DNA from: an uncultured Verrucomicrobiae bacterium
Lineage (GTDB): Bacteria > Verrucomicrobiota > Verrucomicrobiia > Chthoniobacterales > JAFAMB01
DNA: 64,000 bases
Reading direction: 5' to 3'
Assembly: GCA_963762565.1 (NCBI GenBank)
Contig: CAVXLD010000010.1
Span: 416,001 to 480,000 of the forward strand
Part shown: piece by piece, positions 5,227 through 60,874 of the stretch
Numbering within the stretch: position 1 is the first letter of the stretch
Layout: every line of letters begins with the position of its first letter
Notes under the pieces: model-generated
Told to the model about the DNA's origin: nothing
Database searches by the model: none
What the model saw: the letters and a program-made list of their open reading frames with translations, nothing else
Translations under genes and position numbers: made by a program

Positions 5227-5434
5227 GGTGGGGCGAGGCTCCCGAATAGCCCGCCGGATGACCAAGGTGCAACGCACAAACGCCGTGATGAATGAGCAAG
5301 GCCGAAAAGACGCGCCGAGCCGTGGCCCACGATAGACCACGGCTCGGCGCGATTTAGGGCCTAACAAATGATGGGGATCGGCGTTTCCAACCGCTTCGGT
5401 CAATCGCTGGGCTCTTCGGGAGCCTCGCCCCACC
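5227..5434. repeat. Family C ~208-nt REPIN-like hairpin
   Basis: ggtggggcgaggctcccga...tcgggagcctcgccccacc with central cgcgccgagccgtgg/ccacggctcggcgcg. Confidence 0.9.
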
Positions 5435-5500
5435 AACTCGAGAACTAGGCACATCGTTCCGACATCAAACCGAGGGCCGAGAGACTTTCGGCCAACGAGG

Positions 5501-6121
5501 CTAGTCTCTCTCGCCACTTCGCGGCAAAGCTCGCACCAGCGCTTCCAACCGGTCTGCAAGCTTGCCCGTCAGTCGCAACATTCGAGCCGCGAAAACCGTG
5601 GCATCACCCAGATCTTTTAACCCTGAGAATTTTCGCTTAGAAAATATCGCGGGGATTGCCTCATCGATGGCATCGGAGATCATCCGAGCCGTAACCAATG
5701 GTATCCCCTTGCGGCGGCACAGGCTCGCGATTGCTTCCGACTCCATATCGACTGCCACCGCGCCCTGCGAACGGTTCAATGACCATTTGGCCGAAGCCGA
5801 AGCGACTTGCTGCACTTGGAAAAAGGGACCGGCAGCATCGAAGATTTTCTGCCGGCTCAGAAACTCTGCAATATCAGCATCCGTGTAGTTGGTGGATAAA
5901 ACAAAATCGCCTGGCTCCAATAAGGAGCGAGTTGCACCGGCGAAACCCGAACTAATGACCATTCGCGGTTTGGTCAGCTCGACTGACCGCTGAAGCTCCG
6001 CGATACGGCCGGCGCCAATCCCAACAAAGCTAAGCGAAACTTCCTGCCCTCCAAAAACTCCTCGAACCCGGCGTCTGACGACTCGGGCCTCTTCTGGCAA
6101 GGCAAAAACCAGCTTCAGCAT
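5501..6121 (-). CDS. Purine/uridine phosphorylase superfamily protein (MTA nucleosidase / HpnG-like)
   Basis: GIG, SSGFAGA, AVDMES, RMISD motifs. Confidence 0.75.
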   Translation of the reverse strand: MLKLVFALPEEARVVRRRVRGVFGGQEVSLSFVGIGAGRIAELQRSVELTKPRMVISSGFAGATRSLLEPGDFVLSTNYTDADIAEFLSRQKIFDAAGPFFQVQQVASASAKWSLNRSQGAVAVDMESEAIASLCRRKGIPLVTARMISDAIDEAIPAIFSKRKFSGLKDLGDATVFAARMLRLTGKLADRLEALVRALPRSGERD

Positions 6122-6125
6122 ACGT

Positions 6126-6566
6126 TCAGCCCTGGGCTTTGATCTGCACGGTGACCACGCACCTTGCCGGTGAAGCGGCTGGGCTCGCCTCAGGTAGGTC
6201 TTTGAACCCGTCCGTCACGGCATCAATAAAGCTTTTTCGGTTCTCCACCGGGATCTCTGCGATTAAGTCCGTAGTAGCCCCGGCATCCGATTGTTTGCTC
6301 ACCGCGCTCCCGCCCAATTTGGTGGCCAAATATTTCACTCGCGCCACCTCAGATTCCAATTGGGACTTCATGACCGACAACTCAACCGTCGGCTCGGATA
6401 GGCTTGACCCTCCCAATAGGTCGGACATGCGCTGCTTCAGTGAATCCGTCAATGGCTGGAGGTTAGGCTCCTGCGGATGCTGCGCCCGTGGGGCAAAGAA
6501 CAGCACGCCGGTCACCAAACAAATCGCTACCGCAAGAGTAGCTGCCACTACCAAGATCCAACGCAT
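6126..6566 (-). CDS. Hypothetical membrane-anchored protein
   Basis: N-terminal hydrophobic helix after ATG at 6566; stop lies 4 nt before the next gene. Confidence 0.6.
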   Translation of the reverse strand: MRWILVVAATLAVAICLVTGVLFFAPRAQHPQEPNLQPLTDSLKQRMSDLLGGSSLSEPTVELSVMKSQLESEVARVKYLATKLGGSAVSKQSDAGATTDLIAEIPVENRKSFIDAVTDGFKDLPEASPAASPARCVVTVQIKAQG

Positions 6567-6623
6567 AAGAATTCGCCGCCTTGCCAACGCGGGCAAAATC
6601 GGTTGAATGAGAGATTCTAAACA

Positions 6624-7622
6624 GTGATCGATTTGACGAAAGGTAAAATCCTAGTAACCGGTGGCGCAGGCTTCATCGGTAGCGCATTGATCTGGGCCCT
6701 GAATTTAAGGGGGATCGACCACATCCTGGTCTCTGATTTCCTGGGAACCGACGACAAGTGGCGGAATCTCGTCCCGCTTCGATTTGATGATTTCATTCAA
6801 CCTGAAAAATTACTGGATCGGGTCGAGCGAGATCCAAGCTCACTAGACGATATTCGCACCGTATTTCATCTCGGCGCTTGTTCCGCCACCACCGAACGCG
6901 ATCTCGGTTATCTGATGCGAAACAATTTTGAGTTTAGCAAGATCTTAGGTGAATGGTCGGCTCAGCGAAAAATCCGTTTCATCTACGCATCTTCGGCGGC
7001 CACCTATGGCGACGGATCCGCCGGAATGAAGGATGACGAGAGCTGCTTGGACCTGCTTCGGCCTCTCAACGGCTATGCGTTTTCCAAGCAACGCTTTGAT
7101 GCCTATGCTGCCCGGCGCGGCCTGCTAAGCCAGTTTATCGGGCTAAAATATTTTAACGTTTTTGGACCCAATGAAAGCCATAAGGGTGATATGCGCAGCG
7201 TTGTCCACAAAGCCTTTCAGCAGGTGCAAACCACTGGCAAGATCCAACTTTTCAAGAGCTATCGTCCAGATTATCGCGACGGCGAACAAAAGAGGGATTT
7301 CCTGTACGTGAAGGATGCGGTCGAGATGACGATCTTCTTGGCCTCAAATCCAGCGGCTGCGGGAATTTTCAACCTGGGATTTGGTCGTGCCAGGACCTGG
7401 ATTGACCTGGCAAACGCGGTCTTTTCCGCATTAGGACAGCCCCCCGTGATCGAATTTATCGAGATGCCAGATGCCCTGAGACCCAATTACCAATACTTCA
7501 CCGAGGCGACCATCGATAAGTTGGTCGGCTTGGGGTTTAAGGGTCCAACGTTCACACTGGAAGAGGCCGTGAGCGATTACGTGCAGAACTACCTCGTTCC
7601 AGGCCGGTTTTTGGAGCCCTAG
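6624..7622 (+). CDS. hldD: ADP-L-glycero-D-manno-heptose 6-epimerase
   Basis: GGAGFIGS, HLGACSAT, YASSAATYG, PLNGYAFSK, YFNVFGPNE.HKG.M.S, RDFLYVKD, YQYFTEA. Confidence 0.95.
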   Translation: MIDLTKGKILVTGGAGFIGSALIWALNLRGIDHILVSDFLGTDDKWRNLVPLRFDDFIQPEKLLDRVERDPSSLDDIRTVFHLGACSATTERDLGYLMRNNFEFSKILGEWSAQRKIRFIYASSAATYGDGSAGMKDDESCLDLLRPLNGYAFSKQRFDAYAARRGLLSQFIGLKYFNVFGPNESHKGDMRSVVHKAFQQVQTTGKIQLFKSYRPDYRDGEQKRDFLYVKDAVEMTIFLASNPAAAGIFNLGFGRARTWIDLANAVFSALGQPPVIEFIEMPDALRPNYQYFTEATIDKLVGLGFKGPTFTLEEAVSDYVQNYLVPGRFLEP

Positions 7623-7639
7623 TCCCGGAGCCCCAGATC

Positions 7640-7715
7640 GGTAGGGCGAAAAACTCGGCGCGCCCGGGATGCTGAATTCAGACTGGAAAGAACGCGCCGA
7701 GTTTTTCGCCCTGCC
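7640..7715. repeat. Family D short (76-nt) GTAG REP hairpin
   Basis: ggtagggcgaaaaactcggcgcg...cgcgccgagtttttcgccctgcc. Confidence 0.88.
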
Positions 7716-7742
7716 GCTCCTGGGTTCGTCCGATGCCAACCG

Positions 7743-7967
7743 CTAACCCAACAGATCTTCTGATAACACGCTAGTCTGCTCCCTGGACCCTAGGATTTCA
7801 GCTTGTTTTACTACCGCTGCTGGATCGGCATTGAAACGATACCCATGACAGCTCGGGCAAGTGGCCACGCGCTGGGTCACGATAGAGTCGCATCCCTCAC
7901 AGATCTTGTATAAATGGGGCTCGCGAGCGATTTCGGCCGCCTTAGCTGCTCGCTGCGAAAGAGACAT
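7743..7967 (-). CDS. Small zinc-ribbon protein
   Basis: CEGC-x10-CPSC in a 74-aa ORF. Confidence 0.75.
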   Translation of the reverse strand: MSLSQRAAKAAEIAREPHLYKICEGCDSIVTQRVATCPSCHGYRFNADPAAVVKQAEILGSREQTSVLSEDLLG

Positions 7968-8013
7968 ATCTCTTATATCTTCATTAAAGCTGCTCTCTTG
8001 GCAAGCCGGCAGC

Positions 8014-8157
8014 GGTTATAGGTTATAGGTTTTAAGTTATAGGTTGTACGTTTTAAGTTGCGCGCTCGGTGCTCAAGCTGCAAATCGCCCAGGCGCTGTC
8101 CCCGGCCGCCGGCCCAAAACCTAAAACTTAGAACGTAAAACCTAAAACCTAGAACTT
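8014..8157. repeat. (GGTTWTA)n / (AAACCTA)n inverted heptamer-repeat element
   Basis: ggttataggttataggttttaagttatagg...aaacctaaaacttagaacgtaaaacctaaaacctag. Confidence 0.8.
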
Positions 8158-9108: not shown

Positions 9109-9839
9109 GAGGGGAGGTTTCGAGTTGCTATGATGCGTAGCCCTTCCAGAGTGAGGTCAGGATCTACGATTTGCAACTCCGGAAGTTTCGCGGCGATCAA
9201 AGGCGCATAGCTGCCAGTTGCCACGATGTGAGCTTTCCCTTCGAGCTTGGCAACGATCTCGGTCACGATTTGTCTGACCAAACCCCGGTACCCATAGACG
9301 GCGCCAGCTAGCATCGCTTCCCGCGTGGATTTGCCGATGACGTCGGTTGGTTCCTCCAGATCGATCCGTGGTAACAGCGCCGTCTTTTGATAGAGATACT
9401 CGGTCATTACTCCGAGCCCGGGAGCAATTACCCCGCCTATATATCGGCCCTCTCGGGAAATGATATCGAAGGTGACAGCCGTCCCAAAATCCACCACCAC
9501 CGCAGGTGTACCGTGTCGGTGTGAAACACCGACTGCATTAGCAATACGGTCCGCGCCAATGGTTTCAGGCCGGGGAAAGTCGATCCCGACACCTAAATCA
9601 AGCTTCGGGCCGACCTCTAACAGCGGTGCTTTGACTAACTTCAAAAATATCCCTGTCTTTTGAGGCACTACCGACCCAACCAACGCGAAATCAAAAGACC
9701 AACGCTGCAAAACCCGGCGCACGCCGGCCACAGTCAGCTTCTTCGTTGGGATTACAGCTTTCTTCAGCAGCTTCTCCGCGTCCGACAACGCCAGTTTTGT
9801 CGAGGTATTGTTCAGGTTAACTAAGAGAAATCGGTTCAT
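9105..9839 (-). CDS. coaX: Type III pantothenate kinase
   Basis: GSVVP, IGADRIAN, VVDFGTAVTFD, GGVIAPG, LTLEGL. Confidence 0.9.
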   Translation of the reverse strand: MNRFLLVNLNNTSTKLALSDAEKLLKKAVIPTKKLTVAGVRRVLQRWSFDFALVGSVVPQKTGIFLKLVKAPLLEVGPKLDLGVGIDFPRPETIGADRIANAVGVSHRHGTPAVVVDFGTAVTFDIISREGRYIGGVIAPGLGVMTEYLYQKTALLPRIDLEEPTDVIGKSTREAMLAGAVYGYRGLVRQIVTEIVAKLEGKAHIVATGSYAPLIAAKLPELQIVDPDLTLEGLRIIATRNLPS

Positions 9840-9876: not shown

Positions 9877-10107
9877 GGTAGGGCGAAAAACTCGGCGCGC
9901 CCAAGATTTCGTTGCTCGATCAAATTAGAACGCGCCGGTTTTGAGCCGCGCCGTGGAGATGGCTTCACCCCGGAACCTGCCACAACGGAAACGCTCGGTT
10001 TGCGGCGATCATAGGTAGATTCTGGCCGCACGCCGCAGCTCAAATCCGGCGCGAAGCGACGCTGATAAATGGCTAAAGGTTGGGCGCGCCGAGATTTTCG
10101 CCCTACC
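9877..10107. repeat. Family D long (231-nt) REPIN-like element
   Basis: GTAG ends as at 7640, plus inner cgcgccggttttgagc/gctcaaatccggcgcg repeat. Confidence 0.9.
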
Positions 10108-11209: not shown

Positions 11210-11309
11210 GGGCGCTGCGAACAGATAGGACCTATACGACCTATAGGACTTATATGCTTTGACCTATCGGTCCTATAGGTCCCATAAGTCCTATCCATTC
11301 GCAGCGCCC
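11210..11309. repeat. (ATAGGACCT)n inverted nonamer-repeat element
   Basis: gggcgctgcgaa..ataggacctatacgacctataggac...gtcctataggtcccataagtcctat..ttcgcagcgccc; a related unit lies at 41944-41970. Confidence 0.8.
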
Positions 11310-11891: not shown

Positions 11892-12160
11892 GGGGAGCCG
11901 CTTTACCACGTACTTTACGACTTAGCGTTATTTGTTTCTGCGCGCGATCCGGCCAAAAAATGTGGCAACAGGCGGCTCCCGGGAACTACCCACCGGTTTG
12001 CTGCTCTATCGGCTACACGGCAAAGGGAACCGTGGGGGCCAGCGTAAATAGATCGCGCTGGGTAATTCCCGGGAGCCGCCTGTTTTTTCCCTTTTCGGCC
12101 GGATTGCCGTTGAGGCGAATACCGCGAGGGTGGCGACATACGCGCCAAAAGCGGCTCCCC
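11892..12160. repeat. Family J four-motif palindromic element (GGAGCCGC)
   Basis: ggggagccgcttt...ggcggctcccgggaactaccca...tgggtaattcccgggagccgcc...aaagcggctcccc. Confidence 0.85.
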
Positions 12161-13440: not shown

Positions 13441-13663
13441 AACCGCGAATGGACACGAATTGACGCGAAGACAAACAGAATAAGTCCAACCGCAGATTAA
13501 CGCAGATGTACGCAGATTTCGTCTAGAGGTTGAAGATTGCCAGCGAGCTAAACGACGCTGCTGGAGGCCACACCGTTTTCGTTTCGTTCTAGCGGATGGA
13601 ACAACCTCAAAACGAAATCTGCGTAATCTGCGTAATCTGCGGATCATTCCATTAGTCTGCGGT
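13441..13663. repeat. Family F (CGCAGATTA)n inverted-repeat element
   Basis: ccgcagattaacgcagatgtacgcagatttcg...cgaaatctgcgtaatctgcgtaatctgcgg; homolog at 34365-34663. Confidence 0.85.
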
Positions 13664-18008: not shown

Positions 18009-18177
18009 GCGTTCGGCGCTCGGCGTTTGGCGTTTGGCGTTTCCCGGGAGCGGCGTCGCGCTTGGAGAAAACACTTGCTCTAAGAACCAAACCAATGATT
18101 ATCACCGCGAGGTAGCGGCACAGCGTGGCAAGCGGCAACCACCGAACGCCGAACGCCAAACGCCGAACGAGCAACGC
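18009..18177. repeat. (GGCGTTY)n / (RAACGCC)n inverted heptamer-repeat element
   Basis: gcgttcggcgctcggcgtttggcgtttggcgttt...aacgccgaacgccaaacgccgaacg. Confidence 0.82.
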
Positions 18178-18192
18178 TAAACGGTACCGGCG

Positions 18193-19933: not shown

Positions 19934-20884
19934 ATGAGTGAGTTGATCGAGCTTCGGCATCTTCGTTACTTCGTTACGGTCGCTGAGGACTTGCATTTCA
20001 GCCGGGCCGCTAAACGGCTGCATATCGCGCAGCCGCCGCTGTCTCAACAGATTCGCAAACTAGAGCAGTACATTGGGCATCCTTTGTTCATTAGAAATTC
20101 GCGTACCGTGACTTTAACCCAAGCCGGCGAAATCCTGCTCGAACGTTCTCGTTACTTACTCCGGCGACTGGAAGAGGACCTGGAAACGGTTCGCAGAGTA
20201 GGCAGAGGCGAGATCGGGACGTTGACGGTAGGTTTTATCGGATCAGCGATGCTCACGGTTCTTCCCGCTCTCATTGGCAGTTACCGCAAACGTTTCCCCA
20301 AGGTAGATTTACGGCTTCGGGAGTTAACCACTAGCCGCTTAGTCGATGCCATCCGCCAAGGCGCGGTTGATCTGGGCTTCTTGCGAGATGCCGGCCCAAC
20401 GGAAGGCTTAGTGGTTGAACGGGTAGTGGCGGAACGATTTGTAGTGGCTCTAACTGAGAAACATCCCTTAGCGGATCGAAAGAAAATATCGCTCTTACAC
20501 CTCAAGGAAGACCCTCTGATCCTATTCGCCCGCGAGTTGGGCCCGTTGGCCTGGGACAAGACAATCGCACTTTGTGAGACTTCAGGATTCCACCCCGCGA
20601 TTGTCCAAGCCGCACCGGAATGGCTAACCGTACTTAGACTCGTTAGTTCAGGTCTTGGCTTTTCCATCGCACCTGCTTGTGTTGCCACCATCCAAACACC
20701 AGGAGTAGTTTGCCGTGAGTTAACTAAGTGTCCGGTCTCAACCAATATCGAACTGGCCCGGCGCAGCGATCACCTCAATCCGATCATGGAAGCTTTTCTG
20801 GCCGAAGCGAAAGAAATGTTTCGGGTGATGGGACGCGGATCGGAGCCCGCGATCGGTAGGGCGAAAACCTCGGCGCGCCCTTGA
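19934..20884 (+). CDS. LysR family transcriptional regulator
   Basis: ELRHLRYFVTVAEDLHFSRAAKRLHIAQPPLSQQIRKLE; divergent from the GNAT gene. Confidence 0.95.
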   Translation: MSELIELRHLRYFVTVAEDLHFSRAAKRLHIAQPPLSQQIRKLEQYIGHPLFIRNSRTVTLTQAGEILLERSRYLLRRLEEDLETVRRVGRGEIGTLTVGFIGSAMLTVLPALIGSYRKRFPKVDLRLRELTTSRLVDAIRQGAVDLGFLRDAGPTEGLVVERVVAERFVVALTEKHPLADRKKISLLHLKEDPLILFARELGPLAWDKTIALCETSGFHPAIVQAAPEWLTVLRLVSSGLGFSIAPACVATIQTPGVVCRELTKCPVSTNIELARRSDHLNPIMEAFLAEAKEMFRVMGRGSEPAIGRAKTSARP

Positions 20885-21081
20885 TGCAGCAGCCACCTGG
20901 ATCTATCGCGCCGGGTTTGAGCCGCGCCGCGCGTATGGCTTTGCCCATGGTGTGGCCGGACTGAAAAACGCTGGGTTGGCGGCGATTTAGATGGCTGCCA
21001 CACTCACGCATGGCTCAAATCCGGCGCGGTTTGGCGAAGGGGTCAGCTACGTCCTGGGCGCGCCGAGATTTTCGCCCTACC
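20855..21081. repeat. Family D long (227-nt) REPIN-like element
   Basis: Same architecture as 9877-10107; overlaps the last codons of the LysR gene. Confidence 0.9.
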
Positions 21082-21132
21082 GGCATTGCTCTACTTGCTT
21101 GCTCTAATTGCTCTCTAGTTTATCTTACTATC

Positions 21133-21675
21133 ATGACCACGGCCACCTTAGCCAAGACTGCGGCCGAACAAATCGCTAAGCTACGACCGGCTGGCGAGGC
21201 AGCTGATGCCTTTCTCGAAGCCGTAGCCGAAAACTATATCGCCCGGGAACTACCCCGTAAAGCGGAGCGTGCCCGGCTGTTACAACGAGCACGAGCCAGA
21301 GGCGCGGCTCTCAAGGCCAAATTGCAACAGGACGGCGAATTTCTCTCGAGCGAAGCTCTCGCCGAATTTCTCGGTATCCGGCGACAGGCCATCGACGGCC
21401 GCCGTAAGACCGGTAAGCTCGTTGCCTGGCGCGATCAGCGTGCACATTGGCAATTCCCTCTTTGGCAGTTTGATCTGGACAAGAAAACAGTTCTTCCGGG
21501 GATCGCCGAATGCCTTAGGGAATTGCCAGACGATGATTGGAGTCGCATGCTTTTCTTTCTCAGTATCGACGAGGCATTATCGAAAAAAGAGAGACCAATC
21601 GATCTCCTACGCCAAGGCGAACGGACCGCTGCCGTGATTAAATCGGCCGAACGTTACGGTCGTCATGGCGAATGA
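21133..21675 (+). CDS. Putative antitoxin with HTH-like region (MbcA/Xre-like partner of RES toxin)
   Basis: LAEFLGIRRQAIDGRRKTGKL...FPLWQF...RPIDLL; ATGA overlap with the RES gene; start placed at ATG 21133, downstream of the repeat. Confidence 0.72.
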   Translation: MTTATLAKTAAEQIAKLRPAGEAADAFLEAVAENYIARELPRKAERARLLQRARARGAALKAKLQQDGEFLSSEALAEFLGIRRQAIDGRRKTGKLVAWRDQRAHWQFPLWQFDLDKKTVLPGIAECLRELPDDDWSRMLFFLSIDEALSKKERPIDLLRQGERTAAVIKSAERYGRHGE

Positions 21676-22265
21676 GCTCCGAGTTCCCGCCGCCGAGCCC
21701 GGAGCTCTCGAAACGAACCCTCCCTCGAAGAAGATCGCCCAAAACACTGGTCCGGCTCAGCCGCCAGGAATTTCGGGACCCGATCTTTTGGAGCACAAAA
21801 GGCAAATACCGCTTCGATTCAACTACGGCTCGTTACGGCGTGCTCTATACGGCTAACAGCTTAGAGGGAGCGATTCTGGAAGTATTCGGTGACCGCTGGC
21901 TCGAACATCGAGCGTTATCGGAACAGCTTTTGCGTTCGTACAACCTAGTGAAGCTCAACATCACATCGGGACTCTGGCTAGCTAACACGCTCGGATCCAA
22001 TCTGATGTTTGCCGGAATTGATGCGCGACTTTTCGTATCCACCGATTACGACAAAACCCAGGCTTGGGGACGAGCCTTTATGGAGCATCCTCAAAATTTT
22101 GACGGGATCCTTTATCATTCCCGCAAAAATCCGCGCAAGCTCAACTGTGCTTTCTTTGAAACGGAGTCGGCCCAGAAAGCAATTACCGTTGCCGACACCG
22201 TGCCGTTAATCGACACGAACGAGTTGTATCCGATTTTGGAGCGATACGAGATTATGCTGTTGTGA
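21672..22265 (+). CDS. RES domain protein (putative NAD+ phosphorylase toxin)
   Basis: YRFD, VLYTANSLEGAILE, DGILYHSR (R-E-S triad). Confidence 0.85.
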   Translation: MSSEFPPPSPELSKRTLPRRRSPKTLVRLSRQEFRDPIFWSTKGKYRFDSTTARYGVLYTANSLEGAILEVFGDRWLEHRALSEQLLRSYNLVKLNITSGLWLANTLGSNLMFAGIDARLFVSTDYDKTQAWGRAFMEHPQNFDGILYHSRKNPRKLNCAFFETESAQKAITVADTVPLIDTNELYPILERYEIMLL

Positions 22266-22341: not shown

Positions 22342-22583
22342 GGGGAGGGCGCGCTGCCTGTCCGACATAGCCTTATGCATCCGATCGGTTTTTCTCCGAG
22401 CGGGGCGACGTCGGATCCCCGCGCGCCGCGAGGACGCGTCACAACTTGAAAATGTATTTTCGTCCGCGATCACGAGACCTCCTCGACTTCGGTAACAACG
22501 GATCGCGAGGATCCGACGTCGCCAGCGCTGGGAAGAAAAGACCCTCGATGGAAGGCTATGTCGGACAGGCTGCGATCCCTCCC
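22342..22583. repeat. Family E REP doublet carrying two CCTGTCCGAC inserts
   Basis: gggagggcgcgc[61 nt]tccccgcgcgccg...gatcgcgagga[60 nt]gcgatccctccc. Confidence 0.9.
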
Positions 22584-22637
22584 AAGCTTGTCGCCCGCTC
22601 GCCGTTTCGCCCACTCGCCCACTCGCCCTTTCGCCAC

Positions 22638-23231
22638 CTACTGCTTGCCCTTCTGAATCTCTTCAGGCCAAACGAAACCGCTCTGAAGGAAGTCGACCAG
22701 AGAAGCGCCATTGGCGCCTTCTGAAGCCGCATAAGTGAAACGATACTCGATATTCCAGTCGCCCCGACGTGCTACTAACAAGCGTGACCGTAGCGGTTGA
22801 ACTTTCCCGGCAAAAGTATCGGTGTATTCATAATTGGCCACGAGCGCTGGGTTCTTTTTGGGACTAACGAAACCCGTCCCACGGTCTACCAACTTTGTAT
22901 CCTGGTGTAGAGCGACGATCTGATTCTCACGAACCACAAACTCCGTTTCTAACAGTCGGCCGTTGCTCGGATACACATAGATCGTCGCGGCGATTCGCGG
23001 TGTATCAACTTCGTAGCCAATCGATACCCCCTGTCCAGCCGTATCATATTGCCGGGTCATAACTCGCTGGAATTTTCCGATCTTATTTGGAAACGAAAAT
23101 CCGGACGCGATATGAATGATATTGCCGTCAAGAGTCACCGCAAAGGGACCGGAAGCGGCCTTCGCCCGCTCATCGCCTAGAGTGAACACCAAGCCAATGC
23201 ACGCCAGCCAAAGACGCAGATCGGATCGCAT
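22638..23231 (-). CDS. Hypothetical exported protein
   Basis: Signal-peptide-like N-terminus and a beta-rich ORF of about 197 aa. Confidence 0.65.
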   Translation of the reverse strand: MRSDLRLWLACIGLVFTLGDERAKAASGPFAVTLDGNIIHIASGFSFPNKIGKFQRVMTRQYDTAGQGVSIGYEVDTPRIAATIYVYPSNGRLLETEFVVRENQIVALHQDTKLVDRGTGFVSPKKNPALVANYEYTDTFAGKVQPLRSRLLVARRGDWNIEYRFTYAASEGANGASLVDFLQSGFVWPEEIQKGKQ

Positions 23232-34364: not shown

Positions 34365-34663
34365 ACCGCAGATTGGCCCGAACTAACAGAAGGGAATATC
34401 CGCAGATTACGCAGATTTCGGTTTGAGGCGGGCTTAGCCCAGCGTGAGAGAAACCGCCGAGCACGAGCGAAGTCTTGAGCCGCAGCCTTGCTGCGGTGTC
34501 AGGTTTCGCTTCTCAAAAATCTACTAGTTACTATTTCCAGAACGCTCAACCGCGTTTCGCTTGAGCTTGCCAGCCTCCAGCCGACAGACCTTCTCCAACC
34601 TCAAAACGAAATCTGCGTAATCTGCGGATATTTCCATTCCCCTCTTCCGCATCAATCTACGGT
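34365..34663. repeat. Family F (CGCAGATTA)n element
   Basis: ccgcagattacgcagatttcggtttgagg...aacctcaaaacgaaatctgcgtaatctgcgg. Confidence 0.85.
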
Positions 34664-38107: not shown

Positions 38108-39220
38108 TTATAACTTCGTTTTCGGCCCAAATACCTCGACCAATTCCTCGAGCATAGCCGCGACCCTTGTATAATTCCTTTGAGGTTCGGTAACCGGCTG
38201 ATCGGCGGAGGCTCGTTTCTCCGCCAACGCAATCAATCGCTCGCTCGTGTCAGCCGAGCCGGATTGCAGCGACTTTTTCAACTCTGTGAGATCGGAGCCG
38301 CCGGCGGGTTTATTAAGTGCTTTCAGCGGTTGATCTCCGATCACAAGCTCCCAATCATGGGTGTCGGCAAAGTAAACCGCCGTAACCCCATTCCGTTCGA
38401 CTCCGAGCTGTTGAGCAATCGTTTCGGCTAACTCTGGCCGGGTCTGTCCGGGGCCGGTGGGTTCAAACGCTGCAAAGGCTCGGGCGTAGATCTTGACTCC
38501 CGTAAATCGCTCAAAGTTCGAAAGCTTATTATTGAAACTTTTTTCTCGAGGAGGAACGGCCGGCAATATTCCGTCTTCATCCGAAAAATGAGCGAACGCG
38601 ACTCGAGGGGCTTTAGCAATTAACTGGTCGAACGCAGCTTGGTCTGCGCGAAAGGCCTTCGCCGCCGCTCCTATGCGCAAAATCTTAACCTCCATCTTGT
38701 CGCCCTTCTGTACTTGAGGCAAAACCTCGAGTCCGCTAACGACTCTACCAAAAACGCTATGCAAATAGTTCAATTGGTTTTCCGCGTCTAAAGTGATGAA
38801 GAACTGGCAGCCGTTTGTATCCGGTCCGGAATTCGCCATCGATAAGACGCCGATCGAGTCATGACGAAGCTTCGGCGAAAACTCGTCTGGAAATTCGTAG
38901 CCCGGGTCTCCGTCACCCGTACCAAGTGGATCGCCTCCTTGGATGACAAAGCCCGGTACCACTCGATGAAACGTCAATCCATCGTAGAATGGTTTGCCCG
39001 GATTAGGTCCTAAGGCCCCCTCAGCCAACCCGACAAAGTTGGTAACCGTTAAAGGAGCTTCTTGATCGAACAACCGGGCGATGATGGTCCCGCGAGGTGT
39101 AATGATTTTCGCGTAAAGGCCGTCAGGCAAATATAAAGGGGAATCGGATGGTGACGGCGAAGCTGCCATTAACCGGCTGGCAGTGATGCTAGCGAAGAGA
39201 ATGAGGATAAGCGAACGCAT
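38108..39220 (-). CDS. Cyclophilin-type peptidyl-prolyl isomerase with signal peptide and extra C-terminal domain
   Basis: APLTVTNF, FHRVVPGFVIQGGDP, SMANSGPDTNGCQFFIT, HSVFG. Confidence 0.93.
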   Translation of the reverse strand: MRSLILILFASITASRLMAASPSPSDSPLYLPDGLYAKIITPRGTIIARLFDQEAPLTVTNFVGLAEGALGPNPGKPFYDGLTFHRVVPGFVIQGGDPLGTGDGDPGYEFPDEFSPKLRHDSIGVLSMANSGPDTNGCQFFITLDAENQLNYLHSVFGRVVSGLEVLPQVQKGDKMEVKILRIGAAAKAFRADQAAFDQLIAKAPRVAFAHFSDEDGILPAVPPREKSFNNKLSNFERFTGVKIYARAFAAFEPTGPGQTRPELAETIAQQLGVERNGVTAVYFADTHDWELVIGDQPLKALNKPAGGSDLTELKKSLQSGSADTSERLIALAEKRASADQPVTEPQRNYTRVAAMLEELVEVFGPKTKL

Positions 39221-39253
39221 TGCCCGCAGTATTTAGCTCAGGAGGGGAAGAAG

Positions 39254-39538
39254 GAATAGCCGCAAAAGATCGCAAAGAACGCAAAAAAAATGGTAGGGCG
39301 AGGCTCCCGAGAGACCTAAGTGCTTCATCAGGGCTGCCGACGTGCACCACATGCGCACCGTTTTTACGCCGATACGCGCGCCGAGCCGTGCCTAGCGCTC
39401 AACCACGGCTCGGCGCGCATATCGGGTTCAGCACGGGAAATATTGACGATATGCCGATCTCCCTGCTTACCCGTACGGTGTTTCGGGAGCCTCGCCCTAC
39501 CAACGCTGGGTATCTTTTGCGATCTTTTGCGGCTATTC
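39254..39538. repeat. (CGCAAAAGA) element enclosing a family C hairpin (39292-39501)
   Basis: Perfect 23-bp IR gaatagccgcaaaagatcgcaaa / tttgcgatcttttgcggctattc. Confidence 0.88.
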
Positions 39539-39865
39539 TTTCTCTGCTGCACGGCCCGCAGCCAACGGCACCTCAGCATTCAACCATTTGCTAAAGCTCT
39601 CATTCACTGACTCAGGCGCTATCTCGGCCACCAGATTGGTATAGCTGATATATTGCCGCACGAGCTCTTCAATCGCTTTGCGATAGCCGGCCTGGGTCTT
39701 GACCAGCAGCACGGTCTCCGGTTCTTCCACTATCTTACCTTCCCAACGATAAGCACACGTGATCGGAAACCAGTTAGTGCACACCGCCAATTGCCGCTCC
39801 AACAATGCTCTACCGATCCGGCGAGCCTCATCGTCCGTGTTCAACGTGATGTAGTAGATGCGCAT
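39533..39865 (-). CDS. cutA: Divalent cation tolerance protein CutA
   Basis: EARRIGRALLERQLAVC, YRWEGKI, E..LLVKT. Confidence 0.9.
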   Translation of the reverse strand: MRIYYITLNTDDEARRIGRALLERQLAVCTNWFPITCAYRWEGKIVEEPETVLLVKTQAGYRKAIEELVRQYISYTNLVAEIAPESVNESFSKWLNAEVPLAAGRAAEKE

Positions 39866-39886
39866 GGGAGAAGAAGTACCCCAAAA

Positions 39887-40094
39887 GGTAGGGCGAGGCT
39901 CCCGAATTATAGACAGGTCGTCGCGGCGTGAAATGACGATTCATGGTATATGGGATGCAACGACTGAAAGCTGCCGAGCCGTGGGTCGCGCAATCCAAGG
40001 CTCGGCAGCTTCTATACGATGCACCTGATATACCAACGAAATGCCATTTATCCCGGCGACTCCCTTTCGGCTAATTCCGGAGCCTCGCCCTACC
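39887..40094. repeat. Family C 208-nt REPIN-like hairpin
   Basis: ggtagggcgaggctcccga...ggagcctcgccctacc; apex gctgccgagcc/ggctcggcagc. Confidence 0.9.
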
Positions 40095-40129
40095 AAACTA
40101 CCCTGCGACTCACCTTGAGGACGATCAAA

Positions 40130-41920
40130 ATGACAATTTCGATACGGATGGGATTAGTAGCAGCCATTGGGGCGGTAGCCATTGCCAGTTATGCGGGCGA
40201 GACCCAGGGTTGGGTGCAGAAAAGCAATGAGGCTGCTAAGCCGCTGCTCGAATACATCGCCAGGTATACGCCCGAATATGGTTCTTCAATCGGGATCGAC
40301 AAAGCAGACGAAGGCGTCATCGATCTAAAGCCAGATCTCTACGCACGCACCAAGGAAGACGGAGAAAAGATAGTCCAAGAGTTGCAGGAGAAGGAATCAG
40401 CCGAGTCCGACCCCAGGGTGCGTCGCGATCTTGAGATCTTGATCACCGCACAAAAGAACAGTCTGGAAACCCGAAGGCTCAATCAAGAGCTGATGCTTCC
40501 GTTCTACGATGTCGCGGAGACCGCTTTTGATGGTCTGCAAAGCTTGTTAGATCCGCGTAATTCAGCTGCCCGGCAAGCGAAAGCAATTGTCCGATTGAAC
40601 CGGTACGCCGGTCAGGAAACCGGTTTCGAAGCGATCACTGAATTAGCGAAAGCACAAACCGAAGCGATGCTGGGGAATGCTAAGTTGGTTCGCCCATACA
40701 TCGCTCAGGTAAACGATGCCATCAGCAATACCCAAACGTATTTGGATGGTATTGCTGAGATGTTCCGAACCGCCAAACTCAGCGGTTGGGAAGCCGCACA
40801 TGCGGCACTAACTCGCCAACTTTTAGCTTACAAAGATTGGTTAATAAAAGAGATCTTACCTCAAGCCAGACAAACGAATCCGCTGCCAGAAGCGATCTAC
40901 GCAGATAATCTGAAAAATAACGGGGTGCTGATTGACCCGCACATCTTGATGGAACGCGCTCGATTCGAATTCGTCGAAATTCAGGACGAGATGCGGACGC
41001 TGGCTAAGGTCATCGCTCAGCAGGAAAAGCTGAGTTCGTCTGATTATCGCGAAGTCATCCGTTCGCTGAAGCACCGAACCGTTCCACCAGACCAGCTGTT
41101 GTCGTTCTATCAGCAGAGGTTGACCCAAATCGAGAAATTGGTGGAGGAGAACAATATCGTTAGCCTACCGAAGCGGCCGACGATTATCCGGTTGGGGTCA
41201 GCGGCTGAGACCGCGGAAGAGCCGGCTCCGCACATGAACCCACCGCGCTTGATCGATAATCAAGGGGAGTACGGCGAGTTCGTGATACCGAATGGCAAAG
41301 ACGGTCTTGACGAAGATTTCGTCAACGAGGGCGAATCCTGGACATTGACCGCACACGAGGCGCGCCCAGGTCACGATCTCCAGTTTACCTCCATGGTCGA
41401 CAATGGAGTCTCAATCGCGCGTTGTATCTTTGCCGACAACAGCGCCAACGTGGAAGGTTGGGCGGTCTATATGGAAGCCGTCATGGAGCCGTACGAACCG
41501 CTAGATGGCCAGCTCTTTTCGCTTGATGATCGGTTACTCCGGATTGCGCGCGCCTTCCTTGATCCGATGCTGAATCTGGGCTTGATGAAACCGGAAGAAG
41601 CTAAGGCATTTCTGATAAACGAAGTGGCTCTTTCCGAGTCAGACGCTCGAGAAGAAGTGGAACGTTACACTTACCGCGCTCCCGGGCAGGCTGCCGCGTA
41701 CTTCTACGGCTATATGACCCTGCGAGAATTAAACGAACGAACTAAGCTCGCTTTGGGCGCAAAATTCAACGAAAAGGCCTACCACGACTTCATCCTATCG
41801 CAAGGCCTCCTTCCGCTAAACCTAATGGCCGAAGCCATCCAGGAGGAGTTTGTTCCGAAGTACTCCAGCGCCACGATAGGGACGAACTCCCACGCGTCCG
41901 CCGGCTCCATCGGGCATTGA
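40130..41920 (+). CDS. DUF885 family exported protein (putative metallopeptidase)
   Basis: HEARPGHDLQ, EGWAVYME, EVERY..PGQA..Y; GAGGA RBS before ATG 40130. Confidence 0.88.
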   Translation: MTISIRMGLVAAIGAVAIASYAGETQGWVQKSNEAAKPLLEYIARYTPEYGSSIGIDKADEGVIDLKPDLYARTKEDGEKIVQELQEKESAESDPRVRRDLEILITAQKNSLETRRLNQELMLPFYDVAETAFDGLQSLLDPRNSAARQAKAIVRLNRYAGQETGFEAITELAKAQTEAMLGNAKLVRPYIAQVNDAISNTQTYLDGIAEMFRTAKLSGWEAAHAALTRQLLAYKDWLIKEILPQARQTNPLPEAIYADNLKNNGVLIDPHILMERARFEFVEIQDEMRTLAKVIAQQEKLSSSDYREVIRSLKHRTVPPDQLLSFYQQRLTQIEKLVEENNIVSLPKRPTIIRLGSAAETAEEPAPHMNPPRLIDNQGEYGEFVIPNGKDGLDEDFVNEGESWTLTAHEARPGHDLQFTSMVDNGVSIARCIFADNSANVEGWAVYMEAVMEPYEPLDGQLFSLDDRLLRIARAFLDPMLNLGLMKPEEAKAFLINEVALSESDAREEVERYTYRAPGQAAAYFYGYMTLRELNERTKLALGAKFNEKAYHDFILSQGLLPLNLMAEAIQEEFVPKYSSATIGTNSHASAGSIGH

Positions 41921-56140: not shown

Positions 56141-56141
56141 G

Positions 56142-58316: not shown

Positions 58317-58321
58317 AAGAC

Positions 58322-58792
58322 CTACCAACGGAAATGAGCGAACGCTCGATTGGCCTGAGCCATCTTATGCGTGTCGTCTCTCTTTTTTATTGCATTACCT
58401 TGCCCTGAGGCGGCGTCTTTAAGTTCTGCCGCTAAATTGTCAACCATAGTCCCACGACGATTCTTCGCGAAATTGACGATCCAACGCATCGCCAGAGACA
58501 CCTGACGGTCCGTGGAAACTTCGATTGGCACCTGATAGGTCGCGCCACCGACCCGGCGTGACTTTACTTCTAGACGCGGCTTCGAGTTGTCCAGTGCCTT
58601 GTGTAGCGTGTCCAAAGGATCAACCGCATCCGACCCTTCCCGGCTCTTTTCAATCGCCTGATACACGATGCGTTCGGCCAACGATTTCTTGCCGTTACGC
58701 ATCACGGTATCGATCAACCGGGCAACTACCGGGCTGCCGTATCGGCTATCAACCTTGAACTCCTTATGAATGACTCTGCGACGACGAGACAT
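58322..58792 (-). CDS. rpsG: 30S ribosomal protein S7
   Basis: [27 protein letters not shown]. Confidence 0.98.
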
Positions 58793-58810
58793 AACGTTAT
58801 TAGATGAGCT

Positions 58811-59218
58811 TTACTTTTTCTTGCCTTTACCGGCGTCAGCCGCGCCTTCTTTGGGCCGCTTGGCCCCGTACTTGGAACGACTCCGTCTTCTGCCGTCGAC
58901 TCCTAAACTATCTAAGGTGCCTCGCACAATGTGGTAACGAACACCGGGCAAATCTTTAACGCGTCCACCTCTTACCAACACAATCGAATGCTCCTGCAAA
59001 TTGTGCCCCTCGCCCGGAATATAAGCGATCACTTCGTAGCCATTCGTAAGTCGGACCTTGGCGACCTTCCGAAGCGCCGAGTTTGGTTTCTTCGGTGTCC
59101 GCGTCATCACTTGAACACAAACGCCGCGTCGCTGCGGACAGTCAGCCAGGGCTGGCGACTTCGACTTGACCGCCATCTTTCTGCGACCTTTTCGGACAAG
59201 CTGATTAATTGTTGGCAT
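58811..59218 (-). CDS. rpsL: 30S ribosomal protein S12
   Basis: [29 protein letters not shown]. Confidence 0.98.
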
Positions 59219-59302
59219 TCGTTTAAAAAATTCGGTTATTCCCCTGCTTTCGGGACTAAAAAAGCCGCCCTGGTACGAACCACCAGACGCGGGGGAGCGT
59301 GG

Positions 59303-59330
59303 ACTATATAATTTTTCCACCCCCACGCAA
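59303..59330 (-). promoter_or_regulatory. Putative sigma-70 promoter of the str/S10 superoperon
   Basis: TTGCGT-N16-TATAGT about 85 nt upstream of the rpsL ATG. Confidence 0.55.
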
Positions 59331-59438
59331 GAGTTTTTTAGGCGATTTCCCTTGTGGAACGCGTCGTACGCCGACCCAGAATAGCCCACAGTCCACCGCC
59401 TGTCCATGCGAGTCGCCTCGCTTGCGAGACCGATGGTA

Positions 59439-59515
59439 GGTAGGGCGAAAGACTCGGCGCGCCCAAGGCATCGCTTATATTTTTCGCTGCGGCCCGCCGA
59501 GTTTTTCGCCCTACC
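59439..59515. repeat. Family D short (77-nt) REP hairpin, preceded by a CCTCGCTTGCGAG unit
   Basis: ggtagggcgaaagactcggcg...cgccgagtttttcgccctacc. Confidence 0.88.
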
Positions 59516-59616
59516 GAGCACGCCTTGTCGCCGTTTCGCCCTCTCGTCCCTTCGCCGTTTCACCGTTTCGCAGTTTCTTGTTAGCCGGTGTGCTTTATGC
59601 TCTTAGTCCAGACTGA

Positions 59617-60027
59617 ATGAAAATCCATGTGGAAAGACAAATCACGGTCGCGCTTGCGAATCAGCCAGGCCAACTCGCAGCGATCTGCAAGCTGCTGAGC
59701 ACCCATGCGATTAATATCGAGGCTCTGTCGCTGGTCGACAGTCTCGAACAAGGGGTGGTAAGACTCCTCACCAGCGACCCCGAATCCTGCAAAAAGATCC
59801 TCCAATCGAGCGGTTTTTATGTGATCGACGGAGAAGTCCTGGTCCTGGATCTATTTGATCGCCTTGGCAAACTGTCCGAAATCACGGCCGTTCTAGCTGA
59901 GGCCAAAGTAAACGTCGATTACGTCTACGGTAGCGTAGAACATCCCGGCTCCCCAATACGACTGGTACTAAGGGCCAGCGACACCACCCGAGCACATACG
60001 TTATTGAGTGCGCTGGCAGATGTTTAA
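59617..60027 (+). CDS. ACT domain-containing protein (tandem ACT)
   Basis: NQPGQLA...INIEAL and DRLGKL...VNVDYVY. Confidence 0.88.
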   Translation: MKIHVERQITVALANQPGQLAAICKLLSTHAINIEALSLVDSLEQGVVRLLTSDPESCKKILQSSGFYVIDGEVLVLDLFDRLGKLSEITAVLAEAKVNVDYVYGSVEHPGSPIRLVLRASDTTRAHTLLSALADV

Positions 60028-60182
60028 CGCCGGCAACGCCGTGATCGCCGACAACGCCGGCATCGGATCCTCGATTCGATGCCTCAACGAAGCAAAAGCG
60101 ATCTCTAGGCGGACAAGTAAGGCCGAACCCAGAGCCATTCGTTCCCGGCGATGGCGGCGCTCGCGACGTTGCCGGCGTTAAA
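60023..60182. repeat. Family M (AACGCCGGC)n inverted element
   Basis: Perfect 16-bp IR tttaacgccggcaacg / cgttgccggcgttaaa; contains the ACT gene stop. Confidence 0.82.
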
Positions 60183-60218
60183 AAGGGAGGCCGGTTGGAC
60201 TTTGGCCCAACCAGCCTC
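60179..60218 (-). terminator. Intrinsic terminator of rnpB
   Basis: gaggctggttgg..ccaaccggcctc hairpin followed by cc and a U-run on the minus strand. Confidence 0.7.
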
Positions 60219-60222
60219 GTTT

Positions 60223-60626
60223 TGTGGCATAAGCCGAATTCTGTCTAGACGGTCTCTCTTGGAAGAGACCGGCCGGATGACCATTTGTCTCACCCCATAT
60301 TATTATAGGGCGTCCCGTCTTCCGGGATGCGACTATTACCCGAGAGCCCTCGGCAATGCCGAGCAGGAAGGCGTCTGACTCTCTGTTCTGTCTTGCACTG
60401 CAAGGGGTTTTTCAAGCGTTGCTCCTTACGGAAACAACCGGTGGGCTCTTACCCCGCCTTTTCACCCTTATCCCGCATACGCGAGACGGTCTATTTTCTG
60501 TGACACTATCCGTCAACCGTGGCTTTCGCCCTCGGTCGCCCGCGCTTTCGCACGGCATGCTGCCTTCATGTGTTCGGACTTTCCTCTGGATCCACAATCG
60601 GGGAACCAGCGGTCATCGACCACGCG
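60223..60626 (-). ncRNA. rnpB: RNase P RNA (type A)
   Basis: GAGGAAAGTCC near the 5' end; ACAGAAAA.AGACCG, GGTGAAA.GGCGGGGTAAGAGCCCACCG, 3' ACAGAATTCGGCTTA; P2 GATGACC/GGTCATC. Confidence 0.96.
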
Positions 60627-60673
60627 CGCAAGATAACCGAACCGGGTGGTTAACGCAATGATTTGCCAGGACT

Positions 60674-60874
60674 GGTGGGGCGAGGCTCCGGAGCTACCCA
60701 GCCGGTTTACCAGGGTTTATGATGTTTCGACACGATTAGGTCAAATAGGCCGATAGTCCGCCGAGCCGATCCCAGGGTAGGCCACGACTCACCAGGCGCT
60801 TCGTTCTCGGCCGAGTCCTCGAATCCCTATAAACCCTGATCAGTCTTTTAGGTCTTTCGGGACCTCGCCCCACC
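60674..60874. repeat. Family C hairpin (201 nt, degenerate apex)
   Basis: ggtggggcgaggctcc...gacctcgccccacc; arms cagggtttat/ataaaccctg. Confidence 0.82.

Follow-up and report, generated by a model that had tools for sequence, protein, structure and literature searches.

Long palindromic repeats with GTRG heads in Verrucomicrobiota look like an unusually long form of the REP/REPIN kind

What kind of repeat keeps its ends and its apex from copy to copy and so little of the arms between them? The question is raised by four hairpins in the 64,000-nt stretch of verrucomicrobial DNA analysed here (the window), and a preliminary description placed them at 5227-5434 (copy 1, 208 nt), 39292-39501 (copy 2, 210 nt), 39887-40094 (copy 3, 208 nt) and 60674-60874 (copy 4, 201 nt). 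All four were found at these positions and with these lengths. Copy 1 lies between two convergent genes, a patatin/cNMP-binding gene on the plus strand that ends at 5201 and a PNP_UDP_1 gene on the minus strand that ends at 5501. Copy 2 is flanked by cutA (minus strand, stop at 39533) and a cyclophilin gene (minus strand, start at 39220), copy 3 by the divergent cutA (minus strand) and DUF885 (plus strand) genes, and copy 4 by a pterin-4a-carbinolamine dehydratase gene (minus strand, stop at 60944) and the RNase P RNA gene (minus strand, 5' end at 60623). The neighbours of all four copies are housekeeping genes, and three of the copies sit immediately past the 3' end of a gene. The end motif, searched with up to three mismatches, matched the window eight times against 1.43 expected, a number reached in none of 100 shuffles. 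A half-element profile built from 34 halves recovered exactly eight halves in the window, the next match having E = 1.1, and so detected no copies beyond the four.

Each element consists of two inverted halves of ~100 nt that flank a variable loop, and each half comprises a 20-nt end box with a GTRG head, a weakly conserved arm of ~67 nt and a GCCGAGCC apex box. In copy 1 the end boxes are at 5227-5246 and 5415-5434, the arms at 5247-5313 and 5349-5414, and the apex stem-loop at 5314-5348; the apex motifs are at 39380-39388 and 39406-39414 in copy 2 and at 39973-39981 and 39998-40006 in copy 3. GTRG is present at both outer ends of all four copies. Conservation of the 20-nt ends and of the apex was confirmed: both sides of the GCCGAGCC apex are exact in copies 1 and 2, and the right side carries one mismatch in copy 3 and is degenerate in copy 4, which also has two mismatches in its right end box and an 8-nt gap in its right arm.

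The end boxes pair with each other over ~21 bp and the apex boxes over ~11-14 bp, and the arms pair only partly. The z scores against shuffles for copies 1-4 were -10.2, -10.0, -10.6 and -3.3 with RNA parameters and -10.7, -10.0, -9.2 and -2.8 with DNA parameters. Across 10 aligned elements, 95% of the cells in the end stem and 89% of those in the apex stem were paired, and sliding the partner by 1-3 columns reduced this to 30-54%. Position 4 of the end stem covaries perfectly (G-C in six and A-U in four of the 10), and 15 of 17 long forms have either A-T or G-C there. The covariation claimed for the base below the apex was also borne out (C-G in six, U-A in two of the 10). Around copy 2, an outer inverted repeat (39249-39276 and 39516-39543; 28-nt arms, 96% complementary) encloses the element, so that the hairpin extends past the conserved ends. 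An alternative fold within each half, through GGCTC and GAGCC, found no support: single halves folded no better than shuffles (mean z +0.13, 1 of 34 below -2), and the consensus fold of the half reached only -4.6 kcal/mol, without conserved internal structure.

The family extends well beyond the window. A scan of genome contigs returned at least 116 loci, and most of the matches listed were from Verrucomicrobiota. These matches included 55 paired-end elements, 42 of them short (50-155 nt) and 13 long (200-292 nt), and the half-element profile contributed three more long forms. In the short form of other Verrucomicrobiota the end box abuts the apex box; the long form is known, among the matches listed and from the profile search, from the window and five related MAGs. 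Elements form tandem clusters at one locus (L055), and the end box alone occurs in tandem arrays with 17-, 18- and 36-nt periods (L026/L038, L098 and L115). Three elements from two MAGs carry a ~62-nt secondary insert at an identical point of the apex box, indicating a site-specific event. The window also contains a sister family of four elements, which shares the 10-nt head and comprises two short and two long copies; by eye, the long copies show conserved modules between dissimilar linkers of similar length (26-28 nt). The four copies are members of a GTAG/GTGG-headed palindromic repeat family that is spread through Verrucomicrobiota.

The distance from the end to the start of the apex box was 86-90 nt in 34 of 40 halves, whereas whole long forms in relatives measured 200-292 nt. 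Since the loop varies, total length is not fixed, and the fixed length proposed earlier applies to the end-to-apex distance and not to the element.

We found that the arms, described previously as unrelated, carry a weak consensus. Half-elements align nearly gap-free, with a mean arm column identity of 0.355-0.358 against 0.25 expected from base composition (~36% versus 25%). Homologues of the arms occur in Verrucomicrobiota MAGs: the left arm of copy 1 is homologous to L045 (z 10.7), that of copy 4 has relatives in both arms of L100 (0.63-0.67), and copy 2 has an orthologue in L030 (0.78 identity in one arm). Because a weak consensus is shared and homologues exist across genomes, the arms must go back to one ancestor.

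Self-pairing of the arms was uneven. When each arm was cofolded with its own partner and with 32 cross-element partners, the own partner in copy 3 beat all 32, and the number of cross-element partners that equalled or beat it was 2 of 32 for copy 1, 8 of 32 for copy 2 and 15 of 32 for copy 4. The claim that each arm pairs with its own partner therefore stands for copy 3, is borderline for copy 1 and fails for copies 2 and 4. Among the four, arm pairing is best in copy 3, whose column identity is 0.64 where the baseline is 0.355. Across the family, own arms exceeded the cross-element baseline in five of 20 elements, their likeness of 0.64-0.71 lying beyond the 95th percentile (0.60) of all 780 half-pairs; plain copying of whole elements followed by decay would not yield this. 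Near-perfect arms were found in no element, the best being 0.69-0.71, and in 13 of 20 elements the own arms paired no better than arms from different elements. For most elements, these results do not support the view that sequence turns over while structure is kept.

The orthologue of copy 2 lies on L030, a contig from a Verrucomicrobiota MAG; the syntenic stretch measures 993 nt and is 76.8% identical. The orthologue likewise lies inside an outer inverted repeat, which is longer than that around copy 2. Identity between the two was 19/20 and 17/20 in the end boxes, 30/36 in apex plus loop, and 76% and 50% in the arms. Copy 2 has kept its place since the window genome and the MAG split (now about 77-81% nucleotide identity), with the boxes kept and the arms drifted. 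Position 4 of the end stem shows one A-T/G-C swap, changed on both sides. The arms contain no double compensatory change, and 26 pairs were lost in one or other lineage; in a second comparison (L041/L093), there was one double compensatory change and 14 pairs were lost in one lineage. Decay without compensatory change had been named beforehand as the outcome that would speak against conserved arm structure, and it is what the arms of copy 2 and L030 exhibit. No counterpart of copy 3 was found in the 174 nt upstream of cutA in L030, an unalignable stretch where synteny may simply end.

We looked for a mobilising enzyme and for traces of insertion. No RAYT/Y1_Tnp gene was present among the 44 ORFs of the window or among 115 flank ORFs drawn from the 150 longest among the 684 of the listed loci. 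No target-site duplication was detected, the longest abutting direct repeat being 3 nt, in 1 of 58 elements. The flanks were complementary at 9 or more of 15 positions in 7 of 58 elements, against 1.5% in a cross-element control, pointing to nesting within other palindromes. No similar sequence was found in 72,556 plasmid records.

On balance, we favour a REPIN-like action, in which the repeats are non-autonomous elements whose single-stranded DNA hairpins would be the substrate of a RAYT-type HUH/tyrosine nuclease encoded elsewhere in the genome. The end and apex boxes would be the parts recognised by a mobilising or binding protein. The arms would act as a spacer that, being equally long on both sides (86-90 nt from end to apex), holds the boxes in register within the hairpin. 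Paired arms may be maintained in lineages that still replicate while resident copies decay, which, we propose, would account for good pairing in a handful of elements and baseline pairing in the majority. REPINs are already known to conserve the length of the spacer and its ability to form a hairpin over its sequence (PMC3116915). Kinship with GTRG-tipped REP doublets, as proposed in the preliminary description, is reasonable in view of the GTAG/GTGG head at both outer ends, the two inverted halves and the intergenic location. Against it, the RAYT that defines REPINs was unseen in the ORFs scanned. The halves are not themselves REP-like palindromes, and most copies, with 13 of 20 arm pairs at baseline, would be poor hairpins outside their boxes. 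The boxes at the copy 2/L030 locus are conserved as well as coding sequence, which could be equally compatible with a host function. Mobility is putative; the stretch of L030 without copy 3 covers 174 nt of unalignable sequence only. The earlier observations were thus partly confirmed, and their interpretation is partly supported.

It is unlikely that the repeats act instead as structured RNA once transcribed, either as precursors of small RNAs or as long hairpins within 3' or 5' untranslated regions that would stabilise the mRNA or direct its processing. Three copies do lie directly past a gene's 3' end, the boxes are kept at the orthologous locus, and RNA-level roles of REP dimers are discussed by Di Nocera et al. 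(PMC3733652, in the part available). In all four copies the fold of the minus-strand RNA is also 6-11 kcal/mol more stable than that of the plus strand, the minus strand being the one transcribed in copies 2 and 4, but this difference may merely reflect G/T skew. Both orientations occur, copy 3 lies between divergent genes, and the arms lack covariation. No Rfam family matched at gathering score, with only chance microRNA-type hairpins below it. The copies inspected directly have no T-run after the hairpin and are therefore not intrinsic terminators.

Rather unlikely, too, is the ruler or arm-templating element of the preliminary description. In this reading an active process would make one arm resemble the other, for example hairpin-primed copying of one half at a single-strand transposition step or template switching inside the hairpin, and the machinery would measure the fixed 86-90 nt from end to apex. 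Plain whole-element copying predicts that own arms resemble each other no more than arms from separate elements do, the latter averaging 0.36 column identity, and the five elements with arms above the 95th percentile depart from this prediction. The tight spacing, the palindrome continuing into the flanks in 7 of 58 elements and the two-sided change at position 4 between orthologues also agree with arm templating. However, lost pairs far outnumber double compensatory changes in both comparisons (26 versus 0 and 14 versus 1), near-perfect arms occur nowhere, and pairing stays at baseline in 13 of 20 elements. The same pattern follows, with no new mechanism, if replicating lineages are selected for hairpin competence, as already proposed for REPINs (PMC3116915). 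The length constraint behind a ruler-like substrate is real, but arm templating is unsupported.

Some REP/BIME clusters are proposed sites for a nucleoid-associated or topology-related protein, and the four GGCTC/GAGCC boxes at fixed spacing might form such a double-stranded binding array, a reading that we regard as quite improbable. It accommodates the fixed box spacing with loose intervening sequence, the boxes kept at the orthologous locus, the end-box-only tandem arrays and the modular long copies of the sister family. However, position 4 of the end stem covaries perfectly, which speaks for base pairing and not for duplex recognition, duplex binding needs no palindromy of the whole unit, and we know of no candidate protein. 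Deletion derivatives of a DDE-transposase insertion sequence with the same terminal inverted repeats (ordinary MITEs) are very improbable despite the conserved ~20-nt terminal inverted repeats, an element size within the MITE range and subfamilies common to genomes at non-syntenic loci (copy 1/L045; copy 4/L100), since target-site duplications were absent from 58 elements, the flanks are mutually complementary and not directly repeated, the plasmid records held nothing similar, no transposase was found in the window or flank ORFs scanned, and a GTRG head and a short form typify REPs.

ERIC, Correia/NEMIS, RUP and BOX, found in other bacteria, are imperfect palindromes, 100-200 nt long and intergenic, in which internal insertions or deletions give rise to size variants; their core sequence stays recognisable, and some of these families generate target duplications. 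The present repeats resemble them as MITE-like intergenic imperfect palindromes with size variants but differ in that the boxes alone are conserved and that no duplication was seen in 58 elements. Integron attC sites, single-stranded DNA hairpins that are identified by their structure, work alike in principle; their short ends are conserved, and the centre varies and pairs imperfectly. Here, however, the ends lack a GTTRRRY-type core, none of the 44 window ORFs encodes an integron integrase, and the neighbours are housekeeping genes, not a cassette array.

REPINs are REP doublets that form hairpins and are mobilised by RAYTs (Bertels & Rainey 2011, PMC3116915, in the part available, as for the comparisons that follow). 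They differ from the present repeats in size (71 bp between the two invariant 16-mers of the GI REPIN, about 200-290 nt here). In addition, each half here has two conserved boxes (end and apex) with a ~67-nt arm between them and is not itself a palindrome, arms of different copies have drifted apart to about 36% identity, and no RAYT was seen in the 44 window and 115 flank ORFs. In both, two units lie in inverted orientation, conservation is high at the outer ends and lower in the middle, and the middle matters for its length and its ability to form a hairpin, in REPINs with compensatory changes in the spacer. Both are intergenic and multi-copy, sometimes in tandem clusters (here L055), and lack target-site duplication.

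GTAG REPs, including GTGG-headed ones, have been reported from Verrucomicrobia and Planctomycetes (Di Nocera et al. 2013, PMC3733652), and the GTAG-tagged families of the PVC superphylum include Opitutus terrae GTAG-17 to -20 and those of Rhodopirellula baltica. The units described there are 20-40 bp with 5-13 bp stems, so that a half of ~100 nt is several times longer, and the available part of that paper makes no mention of a long two-box form. The box sequences of this family were absent from its four supplementary text files, a comparison that leaves aside the consensus sequences of its Figure 1. The likeness to these REPs, within the same part of the paper, lies in the GTAG head (GTGG in most members of one Verrucomicrobia family), in tail-to-tail dimers with variable spacers, in dimers nested within other palindromes and in the presence of several families together in one genome. 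The ~205-base repeats thus look like an unusually long form of the REP/REPIN kind, a description more apt than that of a novel kind of element.

Four copies of the hairpin element, each consisting of two inverted halves of about 100 nt (a 20-nt end box with a GTRG head, an arm of about 67 nt and an apex box) around a loop, were confirmed in the window where the preliminary description had placed them. Copy 1 (5227-5434) separates a patatin-type gene from a convergent phosphorylase gene. Copy 2 (39292-39501) is flanked by the stop of cutA and the start of the cyclophilin gene, copy 3 (39887-40094) by the divergent cutA and DUF885 genes, and copy 4 (60674-60874) by a pterin dehydratase gene and the bacterial class A RNase P RNA (60220-60623, minus strand, 177.5 bits), whose 5' end is 51 nt from the copy. 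The element is therefore multi-copy and extragenic, with four copies in 64 kb, each between annotated ORFs and surrounded by housekeeping genes. Scanning the window with the 16-nt end motif gave eight matches at ≤3 mismatches, against 1.43 expected, and a profile built from 34 half-elements recovered exactly eight halves, those of copies 1-4, with the next match at E = 1.1. GTAG or GTGG occupied bases 2-5 in all eight ends. Relative to dinucleotide shuffles, the folds of copies 1-4 had z scores of -10.2, -10.0, -10.6 and -3.3 with RNA parameters and -10.7, -10.0, -9.2 and -2.8 with DNA parameters. Copy 4 was degenerate, with two mismatches in the right end box, a decayed right apex and an 8-nt gap in the right arm. 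With RNA parameters, the fold of the minus strand was more stable than that of the plus strand by 6-11 kcal/mol in 4/4 copies, which may reflect transcription or only a G/T strand skew.

The end-motif scan of genome contigs identified at least 116 loci, and the hosts among the matches listed were mostly Verrucomicrobiota MAGs, with a few Planctomycetota; the family figures refer to these listed matches, which are a non-random sample. Among them, 55 elements had both ends, 42 of which were short (50-155 nt) and 13 long (200-292 nt). Short forms have the end box directly against the apex box and a variable loop, and long forms have an arm of about 67 nt between the two boxes on both sides. A profile search added three long forms (at loci L100, L047 and L027) and two solitary halves to the matches listed, and among these matches the long forms outside the window were confined to five MAG assemblies, with the contig prefixes JAFAIO, JAFAZK, JAFAHI, JAFAVN and DASUWQ. 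Of 17 long forms, 15 had T/C at the opposite end to partner the A/G of the head. Related subfamilies were found at non-syntenic loci of other MAGs among the matches listed. The sequences of short-form relatives would also allow a 5-bp GGCTC/GAGCC stem closing a 5-nt loop. One locus contained a tandem array of five short-form hairpins of 92-94 nt with a 136-nt period (L055:425-1062), and arrays of the end box only, with periods of 17-18 nt and 36 nt, were present at four others (L026, L038, L098 and L115).

The arms had been taken to be unrelated between copies. Alignment of 34 halves was almost gapless and showed a weak consensus, with a mean arm identity between halves of 0.355-0.358 versus 0.25 expected from base composition, and homologous arms were found in other genomes: the left arm of copy 1 was homologous to L045 (z 10.7), copy 2 to L030 and copy 4 to L100 (0.63-0.67). 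These results contradict the claim of unrelated arms. Capture of the arms from elsewhere was rejected, as a short-word blastn search with the eight arms produced nothing beyond chance words in the window (best E 0.043) and, in the loci among the matches listed, hit the L030 orthologue alone.

Synteny with the window was found at the L030 locus, which is 76.8% identical over 993 nt and whose cyclophilin is 89% identical in protein; this suggests a Verrucomicrobiota genome of that lineage as the source of the window. The L030 element and copy 2 share one site between cutA and the cyclophilin gene, the two records being in opposite orientation. Identity between the two was 81% in the cutA coding sequence, 19/20 and 17/20 in the end boxes, 30/36 in the apex plus loop, 76% in the arm on the cyclophilin side and 50% in the arm on the cutA side. 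No arm position had changed on both sides with pairing kept, and 26 positions were paired in one genome but not in the other. At position 4 of the end stem both partners had been replaced, A-T becoming G-C. The region identities and pair counts indicate that the boxes are held and that the arms drift without compensation, and the proposal that pairing is preserved while arm sequence turns over thus fails for the arms of this pair. Copy 3, which has the best-paired arms of the four, had no equivalent in the 174 nt that lie upstream of cutA in L030; because this stretch was unalignable, the comparison only suggests an insertion of copy 3. A tblastx search of the flanks of copies 1, 3 and 4 against the loci detected no orthologues, so that synteny among the matches listed was limited to L030 at copy 2. 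In the alignment of L030:175-485 with window positions 39536-39865, the L030 cutA homologue was about 50 nt shorter and two aligned blocks were in different frames, which could indicate a broken gene or a MAG assembly error.

A fixed element length had also been claimed. In the window and the matches listed, 34 of 40 halves had the start of the apex box at a distance of 86-90 nt from the end of the element, and in the other six the apex was degenerate or interrupted. Whole-element length was 200-214 nt in 10 elements, 240-244 nt in 2 and 269-292 nt in 8 of the same set, being variable because the loop varies, and in three elements, which come from two MAGs, the extra length corresponds to an insert of about 62 nt at one apex box. 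The claim therefore holds for the end-to-apex distance but not for the total length (200-292 nt). As the spacing is tight at 86-90 nt even though arm divergence is near-saturated, we infer that the end-to-apex length is under constraint; more scatter would be expected under neutrality, judging from 3 gap columns among 138 arm columns in the copy 2-L030 pair. The inserts, in L047:501-769, L011:501-770 and L093:301-574, have a GTAG-containing terminus and lie at the same point of the apex box, between GCC and GAGCC. An inverted repeat of the window (22343-22583) carries a GTCCGACATAGC motif similar to these inserts, and the right flank of L093 matches window positions 22577-22659.

Since the shared consensus by itself gives some pairing, arms from different elements were used as the control for the pairing of each arm with its own partner. 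Across 17 elements, the column identity of this cross-element baseline was 0.355 (sd 0.078), and own-arm identity was 0.69 for L093, 0.64 for copy 3, 0.62 for L107, 0.60 for L041, 0.475 for copy 1, 0.42 for copy 2 and 0.31 for copy 4. Cofolding of the same number of elements showed that copy 3, L093 and L107 paired better with their own arms than with all 32 cross partners, that six, including copy 1, were beaten or equalled by 2-3 of the 32, and that eight were indistinguishable from the control, including copy 2 (8/32) and copy 4 (15/32). By gapped identity, the own arms of 5 of 20 elements were above the 95th percentile of 780 half-pairs. Arm hairpin capacity thus exceeded the cross-element baseline in 5/20 elements by gapped identity and in 3/17 by cofolding, and the claim that each arm pairs with its own partner was borne out for copy 3, for which none of 32 cross partners was as good, but not for copies 2 and 4.

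In a full alignment of 10 elements, 95% of the end-stem cells and 89% of the apex-stem cells were paired. For arm cells the proportion was 51%, versus 48% with partners dealt among the sequences (8 of 300 shuffles reached the observed value), in a count that uses mirrored alignment columns and so understates the pairing of copy 3. RNAalifold recovered the stems of the ends and the apex, together with one weak 3-bp helix next to the right end stem; it predicted no arm-arm pairing, and its covariation term was approximately zero. The alternative fold within each half, which the preliminary description had raised, was rejected, the mean z score being +0.13 versus shuffles with 1 of 34 halves below -2; its consensus fold reached -4.6 kcal/mol and lacked covariation.

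In the 5 of 20 elements singled out by gapped identity, the similarity between the two arms exceeds that of nearly every pair of arms drawn from different elements, and neutral decay after copying of whole elements would not predict it. Possible causes are selection for hairpin competence in still-replicating lineages, template switching within quasi-palindromes, which is established in E. coli, and re-copying of one half during transposition, and a sample of 20 elements is too small to separate the three.

At the ends of the elements, the longest abutting direct repeat was 3 nt, in 1 of 58 elements, which does not exceed the cross-element control for a target-site duplication. The flanks continued the palindrome (≥9/15 complementary positions) in 7 of 58 elements versus 1.5% in the control. 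Copy 2 is enclosed by an outer, GCAAA/TTTGC-rich 28-nt inverted repeat (39249-39276/39516-39543) that is conserved and longer in L030, and REP dimers nested within other palindromes are described by Di Nocera et al. 2013 (PMC3733652). The window also contains a sister family, which shares the 10-nt GTAG head but has another box after it, in two short copies of 76-77 nt (7640-7715 and 59439-59515) and two long copies of 227-231 nt (9877-10107 and 20855-21081). The long copies appear to have an inner inverted repeat and the centre in common and 26-28-nt linkers that look dissimilar. The copy at 20855-21081 overlaps the start of a 221-aa ORF without a Pfam match, which precedes a RES-domain ORF (21672-22265, plus strand); the layout of this region (21010-22265) looks like that of a RES-type toxin-antitoxin pair.

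Inverted repeats are plentiful elsewhere in the window. Those of about 32-35 nt, AG/CT-rich, at 1475-1698 and 2379-2535 match the L045 flank at about 90%, and further repeat positions listed are 135-168, 1475-1506, 1667-1699, 2375-2410 and 2504-2537. A cluster of the GCGTTTGGCGTT type lies at 18009-18183, and this motif also makes up the complementary flanks of the L011 element. Other families of long inverted repeats, whose arms are 24-52 nt long and 81-100% complementary, are present at 11210-11309, 11944-12107, 34392-34635, 13509-13625, 60023-60182 and 63161-63208, one of them between the RNase P RNA gene, which it closely follows, and the ACT-domain gene.

Copies 1-4 are most likely closest to the REP/REPIN kind, as argued by the GTRG head, the inverted halves folding as one hairpin, the intergenic position, the absence of a target-site duplication, the nesting in other palindromes, the coexisting families and the short form in relatives. 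GTAG-headed REPs, including a GTGG-headed family, are described in Verrucomicrobia and Planctomycetes (PMC3733652). Conservation of spacer length and hairpin capacity over sequence is described for REPINs (PMC3116915), so that the central proposal of the preliminary description corresponds to a known property. A Y1_Tnp/RAYT gene was found in none of 44 window ORFs and in none of 115 flank ORFs scanned, which belong to the 150 longest among the 684 ORFs of the loci.

It is improbable that the long form is instead a distinct class of single-strand hairpin read by geometry, in which a nuclease or recombinase would read end and apex boxes 86-90 nt apart, and the arms of about 67 nt would be periodically re-copied from each other by hairpin-primed or template-switch synthesis and so be lineage-specific yet foldable. 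A DDE-transposon MITE has the inverted repeats in its favour, but the direct target-site duplication was absent from the 58 elements. An integron attC site was rejected, as the ends are a GTRG-headed 16-mer and not a GTTRRRY-type core, and an integrase was found in 0/44 window ORFs. Membership of an Rfam family was dismissed because the sole gathering-score match in the window was the RNase P RNA; a permissive Rfam search of 39200-40200 and seven loci gave sub-threshold matches, mostly chance microRNA-type hairpins, and one tRNA in a locus flank. No match to copy 1 was found by blastn among 72,556 plasmid records. A literature text search for the box motifs returned just unrelated primer sequences, and the literature searched contained nothing on this family beyond Di Nocera et al. 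2013 (PMC3733652), compared by its text.

If the REP/REPIN reading holds, these elements extend that kind to Verrucomicrobiota of soil and fresh water, where it takes a two-box form of much greater length. With boxes and spacing kept at an orthologous locus and drifting arms, they provide a natural test case for what such an element needs to persist, and the short and long forms of the same boxes in related genomes would make it testable, once the protein is found, whether sequence, pairing or distance is read. By themselves the elements do not reveal a new mechanism.

The copies resemble REPs and REPINs in the GTAG-type head that each unit bears on its outer end (8/8 ends), in two inverted units that fold together as one hairpin, and in being multi-copy and extragenic. 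We have not filed them as members, because a RAYT gene was not found in the ORFs scanned and because the halves are non-palindromic and long. A REP unit is an imperfect palindrome of 20-40 nt beside the head, whereas the halves of about 100 nt described here are not palindromes, and each is several times longer than the described REPs.
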